Source: a virus. Taken from it: a DNA stretch of 20,203 bases. Below are positions 3,313 to 9,488 of this stretch, in pieces. A model generated the notes under the pieces. The model was not told the origin of the DNA, did not search any database, and worked only from the letters and a program-made list of their open reading frames with translations. Position 1 is the first letter of the stretch; each line of letters begins with the position of its first letter. A program made the translations under genes and the position numbers. Where the stretch lies: the UHGV virus genome UHGV-1356910. One strand, 5' to 3'.

Positions 3313-3350
3313 GCCAACCGCAGCACGTTCTTGCATACGACGTGCCTGCG
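3313..3350. repeat. Hairpin-containing direct repeat, copy 1 (CCAACCGCAGCACGTTCTTGC..GACGTGCcTGCGG)
   Basis: About 38 bp with an 11-bp inverted repeat (CCGCAGCACGT / ACGTGCTGCGG, one bulge in this copy). The second copy lies at 9451-9488 in the same orientation. Confidence 0.6.
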
Positions 3351-3477
3351 GTTTCAACTCCCGCCAGCCCACCAATCATGATTGGACGGTGCAAGGACAA
3401 CACCAACAAAAACAGGAAGTTAGAAGTCTCAGCAAGACACCGACCAGACGGTGAGGAGACATAAAAGGATACGCAAA

Positions 3478-3527
3478 GGAGCCGCGGCTCCTGGTGATAT
3501 GAAAGCCCACAGATGTGGGCTTTTTTC
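3478..3527 (+). terminator. Perfect 14-bp palindrome GGAGCCGCGGCTCC followed by a rho-independent terminator
   Basis: Palindrome at 3478-3491; GC stem GCCCAC/GTGGGC at 3505-3520 followed by TTTTTT at 3521-3526. Confidence 0.6.
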
Positions 3528-4063
3528 GTTTCATCTGCATAAATGGCTATACATCAGCCGCCACACACGGAGCAACAGCTTTTATTGCTTTCACAGTTTC
3601 TCTATACCTTACCTAGCATATATATCTTTATGTCATAACTAAAAGTTAGGTAACTCATTAATTTAGGTAGTACCGAAAATGGGAACGCCCCTACGATCTT
3701 CGCATTACGAATTATAAGAATCCGCTTCTAATTCAAAGTATTATCCCATCAACACTGCGCTCACACGTCCCACCACATCAAAACATGTAAAGCCTTGCAA
3801 GCCATTGTGAGGCCTTATGTGTCTCAGTTTTGTCCCACTACGACCTGCACAGAAAATAAGAAAATAGCGGTGATATCAAACAGTACAGAAGTCTTTTTTC
3901 TTTCAAATGGAGAAACTGATTAACCCGTTTAATTGTACTCCTCATGGGTAATGTTAAGGCACAGGAACAAAATCACTATTATGAATTTAATTTCACTATA
4001 GTAAATTTGATAACTCGTTTTGTATCTCAAGACACAAGCAACGACCACTTTAAGGGAGATAAC

Positions 4064-4501
4064 ATGTTAAAAATCAGAATGTCGCGACCATCTGAGGCAC
4101 AAGAAATTATCCAAATTTGGAAAAATTCCGTTGATGCCACACACGATTTTCTTACAGCCCATGACCGGCAGGAGATTGAAAAAGAAGTTGTCAGCTTTTT
4201 TTCAGAAACCCCTGTGCTGGTAGCAACAAACCAGGAAGATCAGCCACTAGGATTCATGTTTTTGCATGAGGGACATTTAGAGGCTCTTTTTGTTGATGCG
4301 TCAGCTCGCGGACTTGGCGTCGGGAAACATCTGATCTCACATGCGCTGGCTCTACATCCTGATCTAAGCGTCGATGTAAATGAACAAAATCATCAAGCTG
4401 TAGGTTTTTATCAACATATGGGCTTTAAACTTTCAGGACGTTCCGAGCGGGACAATCAAAGCAGACCCTACCCTCTATTACATCTTTATAAGGCAATGTA
4501 A
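4064..4501 (+). CDS. GNAT-family N-acetyltransferase
   Basis: ATG 4064 preceded by AGGGAG; the ORF-track start at 3944 is an upstream extension. Product has the acetyl-CoA-binding motif RGLGVGK and GNAT-like length and organisation. Confidence 0.8.
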   Translation: MLKIRMSRPSEAQEIIQIWKNSVDATHDFLTAHDRQEIEKEVVSFFSETPVLVATNQEDQPLGFMFLHEGHLEALFVDASARGLGVGKHLISHALALHPDLSVDVNEQNHQAVGFYQHMGFKLSGRSERDNQSRPYPLLHLYKAM

Positions 4502-4525
4502 CATGATTATTTCAGGAGAATTACA

Positions 4526-5110
4526 TCATGGATTTTTTTGACTGTAAGCAACAATGTAAGAACAACTCTGGCCGCTATCTGGGTTTCTCATTTGGTACTC
4601 GCTGGCAAAGGTAAGAGCAAGACAATCACCGGCTTGTAAATGATGAGTCTGATGATTGACTCGAAAATCAAGGCTGCCGTTTAACATCCACAGAGTTTGT
4701 CCGGAAAGATGCTCATTTGCAGAGGCAGGGATAGTCAATTGCCCCATAGGGGGGATTTCAACTTTTATTAGTTCCGGACATGCACCCGCTGGGGACAAAG
4801 ACCAGCGGGTAATGCCTGTTTCTTCATCAATCCAGTGTTGTTGCTGGTCAGCCAAAAGTACAAGTGAATTCTGTTGCATCTCAAGCTCTGCAAAAAGCTT
4901 TGATAGCGTAATATTCAGTGCATTAGCTAACCGACTAAGTATTGTTGCACTGGGGCTTGAAGTGCCTCGTTCAACTTTGCTGATCATCGCCTGACTGACA
5001 CCAGATCGTTGGGCAAGCTCTGTAACAGTCAAGTTTCGAGACTTTCTGAGCTTGAGTAACAAACGTGCAATATCGCTATCGACTATCTGATTTTTAGCTC
5101 TTTTATCCAT
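4526..5110 (-). CDS. XRE-family HTH transcriptional regulator with C-terminal cupin domain (PuuR-like architecture)
   Basis: N-terminal HTH (LTVTELAQRSGVSQAMISKVERG) and a C-terminal cupin-like region. Probable start is ATG 5110 after GAGGGGAGAAG; the ORF-track start at 5128 is GTG. Convergent with the GNAT gene across a 24-bp gap. Confidence 0.8.
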   Translation of the reverse strand: MDKRAKNQIVDSDIARLLLKLRKSRNLTVTELAQRSGVSQAMISKVERGTSSPSATILSRLANALNITLSKLFAELEMQQNSLVLLADQQQHWIDEETGITRWSLSPAGACPELIKVEIPPMGQLTIPASANEHLSGQTLWMLNGSLDFRVNHQTHHLQAGDCLALTFASEYQMRNPDSGQSCSYIVAYSQKNP

Positions 5111-5607
5111 TCTTCTCCCCTCTTTCACCGACCTGATTATGCCATTACATAAATTGCGATTAAATAAATGATTTTACACGTCTCAAATGCATTTTTTCTA
5201 TACGTTATAGCTTTAGAGTAAGAGCTGGTAACTTCAACTTCCGTATTTGGCACATAACAGTCCTAGATACAGTGACGCACAGTTTCTTTACAAAAACATA
5301 GCTACATAGAGGTTGATCATCGTGTCAAATGTACTGTAGAAATACCTACAATAATATTTTTTTGCTAATATGCGTATAAATGAATAACTATAGATAGATA
5401 AAAATATCAGCAAAAAGAAAATTTCCAGCATATTAAACCAAAACAATAATACAACACTTGGCAAGTTGACCATAAAGAATGAATAAAACGAAACAATAAT
5501 TCAAACTTAAACAAACTATAAACAGTTAAACAATATACAATTGACTCATGAAGTTAGATATAAAAAATACATATTCAATCATTAAAACGATTGAATGGAG
5601 ACCTTTT

Positions 5608-8232: not shown

Positions 8233-8254
8233 CTTCAAAATATTCCGCTATTTG

Positions 8255-8286
8255 CTCCCAATGCAAAACATATATTGCATTGGGAG
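8255..8286 (+). terminator. Perfect 12-bp-stem hairpin downstream of the hydrolase gene
   Basis: CTCCCAATGCAA (8255-8266) and TTGCATTGGGAG (8275-8286) around an 8-nt loop, followed by T-rich sequence. Confidence 0.45.
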
Positions 8287-8415
8287 CATATTCATATTTT
8301 TGTTATTCTTGTATGAAATCGTCTCATGTACACGGTCCTTTTTTCGCCGAAAACTGATATTACTTTAATCAAAAGTTGACATGCCAGATTCGAAGCAAAT
8401 TTATAAAATATCAAA

Positions 8416-8721
8416 TCAATATACATTTTGCACCTTCGATATAGTAATGGCCGTTACTGTAATATGAGTTACAAACAGCTTCATACCCAGAGCTACTGAT
8501 GTATCAACACGATTCAACAATACCCGATATTTATTCCATGCCTCCAGCAACGATCTTTCTTCCTCCGTTGCGATTTCCAGATCTACAGCATCCTGCAGTG
8601 GCGCAATATACTCACTGAATTCCTGGATGTAGAACTGTGTGGTGACGGTCTTCCAGCCATTCGGCTCCTGCTGTATCGAAGCATACCAGGCTATTTCAAT
8701 ATCGCTATGCTGCGGCAGCAT
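8416..8721 (-). pseudogene. Tail fibre assembly (Tfa) protein fragment: C-terminal half with an aberrant terminus
   Basis: Contains [37 protein letters not shown], then departs from the canonical ..TAPDIEWP.. ending. The N-terminal half of the family is missing and the methyltransferase gene lies where it would be. Confidence 0.6.
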
Positions 8722-8777
8722 TTAACCCCTTGTAATTCATCGCCATAATTGATTTAATTCATAAATAAAACTATAAC

Positions 8778-9446
8778 ATGGTGAAATTAATGAAAAAAAA
8801 CACAGATGATGGGGCTAAAATTTACACACCACTTACCCTAAAGCTTTATGACTGGTGGGTTTTGGGAGTATCAAATCGGCTTGCATGGGGATGTCCTACA
8901 AAGGAACACCTTCTTCCACACTTTCTGGAACATTTAGGTAACAACCATCTGGATATTGGTGTTGGAACTGGGTTTTACCTTACTCACGTACCTGAGAGTA
9001 GTCTGATATCTTTAATGGATTTGAACGAAGCTAGCCTGAACGCGGCATCTACAAGGGCAGGGGAATCAAAAATTAAACATAAAATTAGCCATGATGTTTT
9101 TGAACCTTATCCCGCGGCGTTACATGGTCAATTTGATTCCATTTCCATGTTTTACCTTCTTCACTGCCTGCCTGGAAATATATCTACAAAAAGCTGTGTA
9201 ATACGCAATGCGGCGCAGGCCTTAACTGACGATGGAACTCTATACGGAGCCACAATTCTTGGCGATGGAGTTGTGCACAATAGCTTCGGTCAAAAACTGA
9301 TGCGCATTTACAATCAGAAAGGCATCTTTTCAAACACAAAAGATTCCGAAGAAGGCTTAACACATATACTCTCAGAGCATTTCGAGAATGTTAAAACCAA
9401 GGTTCAAGGTACTGTAGTAATGTTTTCCGCTTCAGGGAAAAAATAG
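8778..9446 (+). CDS. Class I SAM-dependent methyltransferase (small-molecule/RNA type, not an obvious DNA MTase)
   Basis: Motif I LDIGVGTGFYL, about 220 aa. The more likely start is ATG 8790 after GGTGA. Its position between tfa remnants recalls the ybcY pseudogene context at the edge of E. coli K-12 DLP12 (memory, unverified). Confidence 0.8.
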   Translation: MVKLMKKNTDDGAKIYTPLTLKLYDWWVLGVSNRLAWGCPTKEHLLPHFLEHLGNNHLDIGVGTGFYLTHVPESSLISLMDLNEASLNAASTRAGESKIKHKISHDVFEPYPAALHGQFDSISMFYLLHCLPGNISTKSCVIRNAAQALTDDGTLYGATILGDGVVHNSFGQKLMRIYNQKGIFSNTKDSEEGLTHILSEHFENVKTKVQGTVVMFSASGKK

Positions 9447-9450
9447 CATC

Positions 9451-9488
9451 CAACCGCAGCACGTTCTTGCTTAAGACGTGCTGCGGCA
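9451..9488. repeat. Hairpin-containing direct repeat, copy 2 (CCAACCGCAGCACGTTCTTGCTTAAGACGTGCTGCGG)
   Basis: Perfect 11-bp stem. Lies immediately 3' of the tfa remnant on the - strand, where it could act as that gene's terminator. First 21 bp identical to copy 1. Confidence 0.6.

Follow-up and report, generated by a model that had tools for sequence, protein, structure and literature searches.

Two direct copies of a short hairpin enclose about 6.1 kb of DNA in a viral sequence of 20,203 nt (UHGV-1356910; the whole stretch analysed is referred to here as the window), raising the question of what the repeats are and how the DNA between them was acquired. Our preferred answer, to which we assign a probability of roughly three in four, is that the repeat is a lambdoid terminator hairpin that doubles as a homology patch for exchange of b regions, with the 6.1 kb representing layered cargo gained and lost there.

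The two hairpin copies

Both copies are on the plus strand. Copy 1 (3314–3351; 38 nt; CCAACCGCAGCACGTTCTTGCATACGACGTGCCTGCGG) is of the HK97 type with a CATACG loop and one bulged C, and copy 2 (9450–9486; 37 nt; CCAACCGCAGCACGTTCTTGCTTAAGACGTGCTGCGG) has a CTTAAG loop and no bulge. An earlier note on this DNA correctly recognized the repeat, although its positions (3313–3350 and 9451–9488) are 1–2 nt off. The copies are in the same orientation, as that note reported, with an exact run of 21 nt in common, and differ by three loop substitutions and the bulged C of copy 1. Chance alone would give about 5e-5 such 21-mer pairs in a 20 kb sequence, and the longest exact repeat in shuffled sequence (n = 30) is 15 nt, compared with 21 nt for the real copies. 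The 11 bp stems described previously are also present, with 11–14 bp pairing and folding energies on the plus strand of -20 and -23 kcal/mol (z = -3.4 and -4.8 for copies 1 and 2 respectively).

Both copies are located at the 3′ ends of transcription units. The stem of copy 1 begins 68 nt past the dinI stop codon, and its T-tract is cut down to TTTC at a junction with ssrA DNA. Copy 2 lies between convergent methyltransferase and tfa genes, starting 3 nt past the methyltransferase stop (the stem begins 7 nt past it) and ending 14 nt short of the stop codon of a minus-strand tfa relic, 39 codons long; the proposal that copy 2 adjoins a tfa 3′ relic is thus accurate. The companion proposal of tfa-like DNA beside copy 1 is not: tblastn with four Tfa proteins gave no match there at E≤10, alignment of the 200 nt beside copy 1 with the 200 nt beside copy 2 is no better than for shuffles (z = -0.5), and a fossil of ssrA is present instead. 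The view of both copies as conserved tfa-terminator regions therefore holds as regards a conserved lambdoid hairpin, but not as regards a tfa relic at copy 1.

Organization of the window

The window contains an excisionase gene (1104–1340, plus strand) and a phiP27-type tyrosine integrase gene (1396–2709, plus strand; Pfam Arm-DNA-bind_2 and Phage_integrase), together 95.7% identical to phiP27 xis/int with its annotated attL, and is therefore the attP form of a phiP27-type, yecE-integrating lambdoid phage; in the EC9682 chromosome the xis/int segment is at the opposite prophage end, ~46 kb away. The yecE-type attP core region (2716–2738) is the overlap of the int-end and dinI-end homologies of the integrated prophage: the int-end homology ends at 2738, the dinI-end homology (FAH, O104:H4, and AREA_499) begins at 2716, and phiP27 attL falls on 2728–2738. 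A dinI-like gene (3001–3249, plus strand; Pfam DinI, E = 1.4e-19) follows, with two SOS-box-like motifs (CTGT-N8-ACAG) read from the sequence upstream of it (2942–2957 and 2970–2985).

To the right of copy 2 are the C-terminal 39 codons of tfa (9501–9620; as annotated by PGAP in EC9682, where the sequence is identical), which match residues 156–194 of lambda and O55 Tfa at 85–90% by tblastn, two small ORFs (9639–9932 and 9942–10220), and a tail-fibre gene (10217–12286; Pfam phage_tail_N), all on the minus strand. The order across the window is int, att core, dinI, hairpin 1, block, hairpin 2, tfa′, tail fibre, and J; the block is located between tfa/stf and attP-int, the position of b-region cargo.

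Composition of the block

The block is a composite of an ssrA fossil followed by an almost complete b region of the PhiR29/DLP12 phage type. The fossil (3348–3530, plus strand) contains the last ~25 nt of tmRNA (TTCAACTCCCGCCAGCCCACCA) and the complete native ssrA-ypjA spacer, including the spacer terminator identified by a terminator scan at 3501–3524, and is 96–98% identical to the chromosomal ssrA loci of thousands of genomes. The same module is found in prophages at prfC and dusA and in IMG/VR contigs. It is followed by an AT-rich spacer (3531–3754; GC 0.37), the right part of which (3690–3754) belongs to a segment (3690–3838) found repeatedly at the borders of islands and prophages.

The remainder (3755–9449) is 98.8% identical to PhiR29_1, beginning 140 nt from the right end of the PhiR29_1 record, and also matches the O55:H7 DLP12 locus adjoining envY. 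Pfam matches identify genes for a GNAT protein (4064–4501, plus strand), an HTH-cupin protein (4526–5110, minus strand), the omptin OmpT (5608–6561, plus strand), an alpha/beta hydrolase (6748–8232, plus strand), a tfaX-like fragment (Caudo_TAP; 8416–8721, minus strand), and a ybcY-type SAM methyltransferase (8778–9446, plus strand). This gene content is as previously listed, and the base composition, which had been suggested as a check, is atypical (GC 0.407, compared with 0.544 on the tail side). There are no recombinase genes among those encoded by the block.

Comparison with relatives gives no constant block ends. Similarity to PhiR29 and O55:H7 spans 3755–9620, that to ev243 runs only from 5495 onward (a boundary shared with K-12), and that to a short allele of the same locus only from 8497 onward.

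Distribution of the hairpin

The hairpin is a conserved element of lambdoid phages located between the tail-fibre genes and the attachment site, and is common to lambda, HK97, Stx phages, and most E. coli prophages; the copy 2 variant is the most frequent in IMG/VR. A conserved leader of ~60 nt (3250–3313 in the window, plus strand) accompanies it in HK97, where it occupies the interval between sib and the hairpin, at 24.2 kb in lambda, in Stx phages, and in many prophages, and leader plus hairpin are present in 201 phage records. A whole or relic tfa C-terminus ends within 40 nt of the hairpin in a fixed orientation in 105 of 146 IMG/VR instances (72%), but Stx2c-type phages carry the hairpin without any tfa, and the check proposed earlier, whether it always follows tfa, comes out positive only for the majority. 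The hairpin adjoins tfa only where no cargo intervenes.

Lambda and HK97 provide the closest comparisons. In lambda one copy (22573–22610) is 15 nt past the tfa stop, in the same orientation relative to tfa, and a second (24162–24199) has the leader; these two direct copies flank the b-region gene ea47 much as the window copies flank the cargo. They differ in that lambda copy A has a compensatory change from a C:G to an A:U pair and a bulged U, and that the interval is 1.6 kb with one gene rather than 6.1 kb with six. HK97 has the order int, att core, sib, leader, hairpin, 135 nt, and tfa, and its leader and hairpin (NC_002167, 20943–21091) are 97% identical to window 3256–3354. This leader-hairpin unit directly adjoins sib, annotated as a retroregulation site, and its tail is T-rich (UUUCAUUUAU), but it is in single copy and without b-region cargo. 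The leader is preceded by sib in HK97 and by dinI in the window, where the tail side is occupied by the ssrA fossil.

A chance match, or a REP-like chromosomal palindrome unrelated to phages, accords with the palindromic nature of the repeat, but is refuted by the chance expectation of ~5e-5 and by the phage-bound contexts. All hairpin contexts examined are in DNA derived from lambdoid phages or prophages, mostly at phage or prophage ends (one copy is near the border of a vat island), and the dispersal through core chromosomal intergenic DNA that typifies REP/BIME elements was not seen among them. The true hosts in a one-genome-per-species collection are all Escherichia or Shigella. Two matches in that scan are in contigs binned as Bacillus/Bacillota MAGs but have coliphage-type flanks, and the remaining ones are either 100% lambda, in contaminated assemblies, or chance. 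No paper naming the hairpin was found in the literature library searched.

Predicted role in termination

Using the leader alone, 46 distinct hairpin variants were collected, a sample that is therefore free of bias from the hairpin sequence itself. Standard pairs occupy 90.4% of pair cells, and seven of the 14 stem pairs show changes on both sides. The covariation score was reached in none of 500 shuffles and slid controls scored far lower, although, the variants being related sequences, compensatory changes appear more independent in the shuffle control than they are. A T-tract (at least five T within 9 nt after the stem) is present on the dinI/int-sense strand in 28 of the 46 variants. The compensatory changes together with the T-tracts support reading the element as an intrinsic terminator of transcripts in the dinI/int direction, and the sequence predicts that it terminates the att-proximal unit in vivo.

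The GC-rich stem of 11–14 bp, its compensatory changes, the position at gene 3′ ends, and, in 28 of the 46 family variants, the T-tract are typical of intrinsic terminators. The element, a predicted terminator, differs from these in the unusual conservation of its primary sequence, and the window copies in having no full T-tract. A canonical terminator scan picks up neither window copy, the sequence that follows being TTTCAACTC for copy 1 and CATAATCCC for copy 2, and termination at both may therefore be poor. As the predicted end of the att-proximal unit that runs in the dinI/int direction, often with the leader upstream, the hairpin is situated at the border with the convergent stf-tfa end of the late operon. 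In cargo-free phages its distance from the tfa stop is 15–135 nt, and late transcripts are probably capped there as well.

Read on the opposite, late-sense strand, the element coincides with the hairpin at the 3′ end of the Rfam model for CssrB (RF02799; Shigella chromosome-encoded sRNA B), which is identical to copy 2 on the minus strand. The repeats could accordingly mark an sRNA gene present twice, transcribed from the 3′ part of tfa, with the hairpin serving chiefly as the sRNA 3′ end. CssrB matches both copies on the minus strand (32.6 bits at 9455–9517 and 24.3 bits at 3319–3390), IS009 matches tfa fragments, and in S. flexneri 301 cssrB gives a northern band of ~180 nt, the 3′ end of which was assigned to a predicted rho-independent terminator rather than mapped (PMC3071730). 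However, both scores are well under the gathering threshold of 76 and only the terminal hairpin aligns, such that the window contains no CssrB gene; the rest of the model is not matched and its body is missing at copy 1, where ssrA DNA is found; the IS009 matches are simply tfa coding sequence; and the T-tracts are on the strand opposite CssrB. We consider the sRNA explanation quite improbable, and 'sRNA' families such as CssrB and IS009 become recognizable as tfa-end relics.

Allelic states and exchange at the hairpin

The dinI end of the yecE prophage occurs in three states: empty (FAH and O104:H4), short with ~1 kb (AREA_499), and long (the window and EC9682). The empty alleles have a single hairpin copy, and the breakpoints between empty and filled alleles lie inside the hairpin. 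Contiguous dinI-leader-hairpin-tfa is present in 953 of 5426 E. coli genomes, compared with ~19 genomes for the long allele. No near-identical empty allele was found, the flanks of the best ones being ~96–97% identical. The hairpin is the meeting point of many combinations of left and right flanks, and in 27 IMG/VR loci tfaX′-methyltransferase is enclosed by a pair of hairpins with a spacing of 1050 nt. Together, the hairpin breakpoints and the block-less relatives at yecE support gain and loss of cargo by recombination at short shared homology. The expectation that breakpoints fall at the repeats was right for empty versus filled alleles and wrong for the internal boundaries at 3755, 5495, and 8497. 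The right bound of the 5.1-kb layer described below is inside tfaX′ (8497), and some junctions therefore bypass the hairpin.

As an alternative to capture, the earlier note raised the possibility that the repeats are attachment sites of a small integrative cassette, which would move the 6.1-kb block site-specifically. Direct repeats flanking the block, and an empty allele that has one copy and breaks off inside the repeat, are as such a cassette predicts, but deletion through homologous recombination between the repeats predicts single-copy empty sites too. The block encodes no recombinase and does not travel as one unit, its shared extents starting at 3755, 5495, or 8497 in different relatives; the phiP27-type yecE enzyme is the sole integrase in the vicinity and has its own att core. 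Moreover, the hairpin is fixed in single copy in HK97, adjoins tfa in lambda, and has terminator-typical T-tracts in many variants. A cassette is very improbable.

It is unlikely, too, that the hairpin is a dedicated structure-specific recombination hotspot, maintained by selection for promoting exchange of cargo where tfa meets the b region and only secondarily for termination, which might operate through cruciform extrusion or through recognition by phage Red/RecET-type or other proteins. The strong sequence conservation between unrelated flanks, the many independent flank combinations that join exactly at the hairpin, the recurrence of hairpin pairs around cargo (lambda included), and the compensatory changes that keep the stem all agree with this. 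However, compensatory changes with T-tracts on one strand are the prediction for a terminator, a short conserved stretch will turn into a junction passively, with no need for special activity, the junctions at 8497, 3755, and 5495 are outside the hairpin, and no associated protein is identified. In functional analogy with integron attC hairpins, leader and hairpin might go beyond a passive terminator and form a maintained cargo junction of lambdoid phages, structured and conserved in sequence, that actively channels recombination by general or phage recombinases. We regard this as improbable; if true, accessory modules would accumulate, be exchanged, and be lost specifically where tfa meets att, and the two lambda copies around ea47 would be accounted for.

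With a terminator that also provides homology, the events can be reconstructed as follows. The ~35–50 nt hairpin stretch is nearly identical between phages with unrelated flanks and would therefore offer a small patch of homology where modules of the b region would be joined, duplicated, and deleted, through homologous recombination, the mode we infer, or microhomology joins at the T-tract. Copy 1 belongs to the phiP27-type phage's own dinI-leader-hairpin module, and copy 2 would have arrived with a PhiR29/DLP12-type b region, as a methyltransferase-hairpin-tfa junction. The 6.1 kb between them comprises at least two layers, one a ~1-kb tfaX′-methyltransferase unit and the other a 5.1-kb segment with the ssrA fossil, GNAT, HTH-cupin, ompT, and hydrolase genes; the order in which they were exchanged is likewise a reconstruction. 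The original suggestion of capture by recombination at tfa-end homologies thus survives as exchange at the hairpin, but not as capture of a single unit, nor with a tfa relic at copy 1. The repeat-flanked block is ordinary lambdoid mosaicism seen in unusual detail rather than a mobile element of a new kind.

Relationship to other b-region cargo

'Morons', and the exchangeable effector loci that follow tail-fibre genes, were reportedly described by Juhala and Hendrix in 2000 and Tobe in 2006. The window cargo resembles these in consisting of non-structural, lower-GC genes between tfa and attP that are variably present and transcribed independently of the late operon, but differs in being a nested stack of whole prophage-end relics, including a chromosomal ssrA flank, rather than single-gene insertions. 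The hairpin offers a sequence-level handle on how accessory genes, here including those for the OmpT protease and a hydrolase of secreted type, come into and drop out of the b region in lambda-like prophages. It is also useful for annotating prophage ends, and the findings suggest designs for testing short-homology recombination in phage mosaicism.

The right end of DLP12 in E. coli K-12 (tfaD-ybcY-tfaX-appY-ompT-envY) has the same order of tfa, hairpin, ybcY, tfaX′, and, further along, ompT, and shares segments 3755–3839, 5495–6611, and 8492–8667 with the window. It differs in having appY in place of the alpha/beta hydrolase gene and in lacking the GNAT/HTH pair. This DLP12-type module is located in a yecE phage in the window and at argU/envY in K-12.

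Genome organization

The two parts of the window, 48–2738 and 2716 onward, match opposite ends of a single ~46 kb prophage in EC9682 and its relatives, and the window thus represents the phage (attP) form. The genes are arranged in the order xis, a phiP27-type integrase, the att core (about 2716–2738), SOS-box-like motifs, a dinI-like gene, hairpin copy 1, a ~6.1 kb block, hairpin copy 2, a tfa relic of 39 codons, two small ORFs, the tail fibre gene and J. The integrase is 95.7% identical to that of phiP27, whose record annotates attL beside int; phiP27 integrates at yecE, and the neighbours of this prophage in the E. 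coli genomes examined are yecD and a truncated ORF. Two LexA-box-like motifs (CTGT-N8-ACAG; 2942–2957 and 2970–2985) immediately precede the dinI-like gene, consistent with putative SOS control of this att-proximal gene. As the block sits between the dinI/att side and the tfa/tail side, its position is equivalent to that of the lambda b region.

Within the tail genes there is a near-perfect (640/643 identical) tandem duplication of 643 nt (15239–15881 and 15882–16524) that spans the 5′-terminal 583 nt of gene J together with the 60-nt I–J spacer, and yields an extra 216-aa ORF (15814–16464, minus strand) in which the N-terminus of J is repeated. Neither EC9682 nor the related IMG/VR contigs have this duplication, which is therefore either specific to this source or an assembly artefact.

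A direct hairpin repeat flanks the block

Copy 1 of the repeat is located at 3314–3351 (CCAACCGCAGCACGTTCTTGCATACGACGTGCCTGCGG) and copy 2 at 9450–9486 (CCAACCGCAGCACGTTCTTGCTTAAGACGTGCTGCGG). The direct repeat described in the earlier note is real, although it had been placed 1–2 nt off; the copies are in the same orientation, have a 21-nt exact run in common, and differ by three substitutions in the loop and one bulged C. The chance expectation for such 21-nt pairs is about 5e-5 per 20 kb, and the longest exact repeat over 30 shuffles is 15 nt. Folding predicts a stable stem for both copies on either strand, and a promoter/terminator consensus scan calls neither. The T-tract is mostly gone from both, that of copy 1 having been lost to the junction with an ssrA fragment and that of copy 2 to the tfa end that adjoins it. 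A 45-aa hypothetical protein predicted by PGAP (WP_001309429.1; 9392–9529, minus strand) reads straight through copy 2, and a similar small ORF crosses the single hairpin of prophages lacking the block; both are probably spurious gene calls.

The hairpin has the features of an intrinsic terminator

A conserved leader of ~60 nt precedes the hairpin (window 3250–3313), and sequences for structural comparison were retrieved through it (CTGGAAATCATTCAAYAC), so that the hairpin did not enter into their selection. Of the 66 distinct sequences downstream of the leader, nearly all form the same hairpin. In an alignment of 46 of these 90.4% of cells are paired in the named structure, and two-sided changes occur in 7 of the 14 pairs, these compensatory counts not being independent events because the variants are related. 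The covariation score is reached by none of 500 shuffles, and slid controls score far lower. On the dinI/int-sense strand 28 of the 46 variants have at least five T residues in the 9 nt that follow the stem (e.g. GGTTTTTCTTTTT and GGCTTTTTACTTTTT). Conservation of the stem by paired changes, together with these T-tracts, is characteristic of an intrinsic terminator, here a putative one for the att-proximal (dinI/int-sense) unit.

Read on the other strand, in the late sense, the hairpin corresponds to the 3′ end of the Rfam CssrB model; cssrB is reported to give a ~180-nt band on northern blots, its 3′ end having been placed at a predicted rho-independent terminator (PMC3071730). A permissive-threshold Rfam search of the window returns CssrB and IS009 shadows plus chance matches, the latter including a mir-450 match on the hydrolase terminator. 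The CssrB matches cover only the terminator hairpin, and those to IS009 (RF02111, a candidate sRNA family; 8495–8698 and 9544–9641, both minus strand) are fragments of tfa coding sequence. Both families appear to have been built on prophage tfa-end relics.

Distribution of the hairpin among lambdoid phages

Judged from sequence, the element is the predicted terminator of the dinI/int-sense unit and is present in both lambda and HK97. The lambda hairpin (22573–22610; 2499–2536 in the retrieved record, L004) is 15 nt past the stop codon of tfa (orf-194) and convergent with ea47, and a second direct copy with the ~60-nt leader is at 24162–24199 (L004 910–947), such that ea47 is bracketed by two direct hairpins in the same architecture as the block of the window. 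The HK97 map reads int, att core, an annotated sib site, the ~60-nt leader, the hairpin, 135 nt and the tfa stop codon, with the leader and hairpin 97% identical to window 3256–3354. A literature search found no usable source on boundary elements or on a named terminator following lambda tfa.

Leader and hairpin are found together in 201 phage records, including many Stx1a, Stx2a and Stx2c phages in which they are near the right prophage end; the element was not found at the right end of 933W. In 105 of 146 IMG/VR instances a tfa C-terminus, near full length in 39 cases, ends within 40 nt of the hairpin and the orientation is constant, and in an Stx2c phage without tfa the hairpin still follows dinI. 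When each species is represented by a single genome, the element is present in Escherichia and Shigella, and two further matches are in contigs binned as Bacillus/Bacillota MAGs but with coliphage-type flanks; the remaining matches are either 100% identical to lambda, in contaminated assemblies, or due to chance. About twenty assemblies (records L136–L169; Chromatium, Pseudoxanthomonas, Streptomyces, Vibrio and others) have contigs 99.7–100% identical to lambda, often short and low in coverage, and these lambda-identical contigs in unrelated bacteria and MAGs are contamination with laboratory lambda DNA.

Allelic states meet at the hairpin

The same prophage end at the same yecD/yecE site occurs in three states. 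The empty allele (FAH, O104:H4) contains dinI, the leader, one hairpin, and tfa or its relic; the short allele (AREA_499) has dinI, the leader, a hairpin, tfaX′, the methyltransferase gene, a second hairpin and the tfa relic; and the long allele is that of the window and EC9682. When empty and filled alleles are compared, the hairpin is exactly where the two flanks overlap (window 2716–3351 and 9447 onward), so the breakpoints fall there. The contiguous empty arrangement is present in 953 of 5426 complete E. coli genomes and the long allele (hairpin 1 plus the ssrA fragment) in about 19, while 27 of 120 IMG/VR loci have two hairpins 1050 nt apart around tfaX′ and the methyltransferase gene. 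The repeat in the short allele is longer (~210 nt), comprising the hairpin and the tfa 3′ end.

A variety of left flanks (the dinI/sib leader, the methyltransferase gene, ea47 and others) and right flanks (the tfa end, the ssrA fragment and several T-tract contexts) meet at the hairpin. Together with the allelic states, these combinations support a model in which cargo would be exchanged at a short conserved patch of homology. The earlier proposal of recombination at tfa-end homology is thus right in spirit, with breakpoints at the hairpin, but not in the identity of the element, the neighbour of copy 1 or the unity of the block. No empty allele above ~97% identity was found, and since the best flanks are about 96–97% identical, the polarity and timing of gain and loss are only inferred. 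Overall, the case is one of ordinary lambdoid mosaicism in which the allelic series happens to be unusually clean.

The block is a composite

Between the repeats are the GNAT, HTH-cupin regulator, ompT, alpha/beta hydrolase, tfaX-like fragment and methyltransferase genes, as listed previously, and the GC content is 0.407 compared with 0.544 on the tail side. The segment 3755–9620 matches the right end of the complete phage PhiR29_1 at 98.8% identity, beginning 140 nt from the end of that record, and is equally close to the O55:H7 DLP12 locus beside envY. Other relatives share less: phage ev243 from 5495 onward only, the short allele from 8497 onward only, and K-12 DLP12 at 3755–3839, 5495–6611 and 8492–8667. 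With boundaries differing among relatives, the block is layered rather than the single captured unit envisaged earlier.

An alternative, that the hairpins are attachment sites of a small integrative cassette, has the paired direct repeats to recommend it, but is rejected because the block has neither a recombinase nor constant ends; a 5.1-kb layer ends inside tfaX′ (8497), where there is no hairpin. An integron attC-like reading (RYYYAAC...GTTRRRY), considered by eye only, was also dropped: the left flank of copy 2, ATCCAAC, does fit R″, but there is no matching R′ and no integron integrase. Exchange at the probable terminator hairpin remains the favoured reading.

Contrary to the earlier suggestion, the DNA adjoining copy 1 shows no similarity to tfa, whether compared as protein or as nucleotide sequence. 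Instead, 3348–3530 contains the last ~25 nt of ssrA and the whole native ssrA–ypjA spacer with its terminator, 96–98% identical to the chromosomal ssrA locus. A tRNA/tmRNA scan of the window calls nothing, the ssrA piece being too short. The dinI–leader–hairpin–ssrA module recurs at 86–94% identity in phage contigs as well as in prophages located at prfC and dusA, and none of the phage contigs carrying it continues into ypjA; a true attR at the ssrA locus is accordingly rejected, and the fragment is a carried relic. These data suggest that the module goes back to an old, imprecise excision from ssrA and was later spread by recombination, and the join appears to lie at a TTCAACT microhomology between the terminator T-tract region and the tmRNA T-loop.

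An AT-rich spacer (3531–3754) separates the ssrA fossil from the PhiR29_1-like part. Overlapping it, a ~150-nt non-coding segment (3690–3838) recurs beside envY at the K-12 DLP12 right end (3755–3839 only) and next to an integrase fragment by the vat island. It contains no tRNA by ARAGORN or Rfam, and the argU 3′ end (DLP12 attR/pauD) was not found in the window at up to three mismatches; the segment is probably a further relic of a prophage or island border. In an IMG/VR contig (L211) the hairpin and ssrA core are deleted between two CCAGCC microrepeats, so that the leader runs straight into the ssrA spacer; this junction exemplifies microhomology-mediated deletion.
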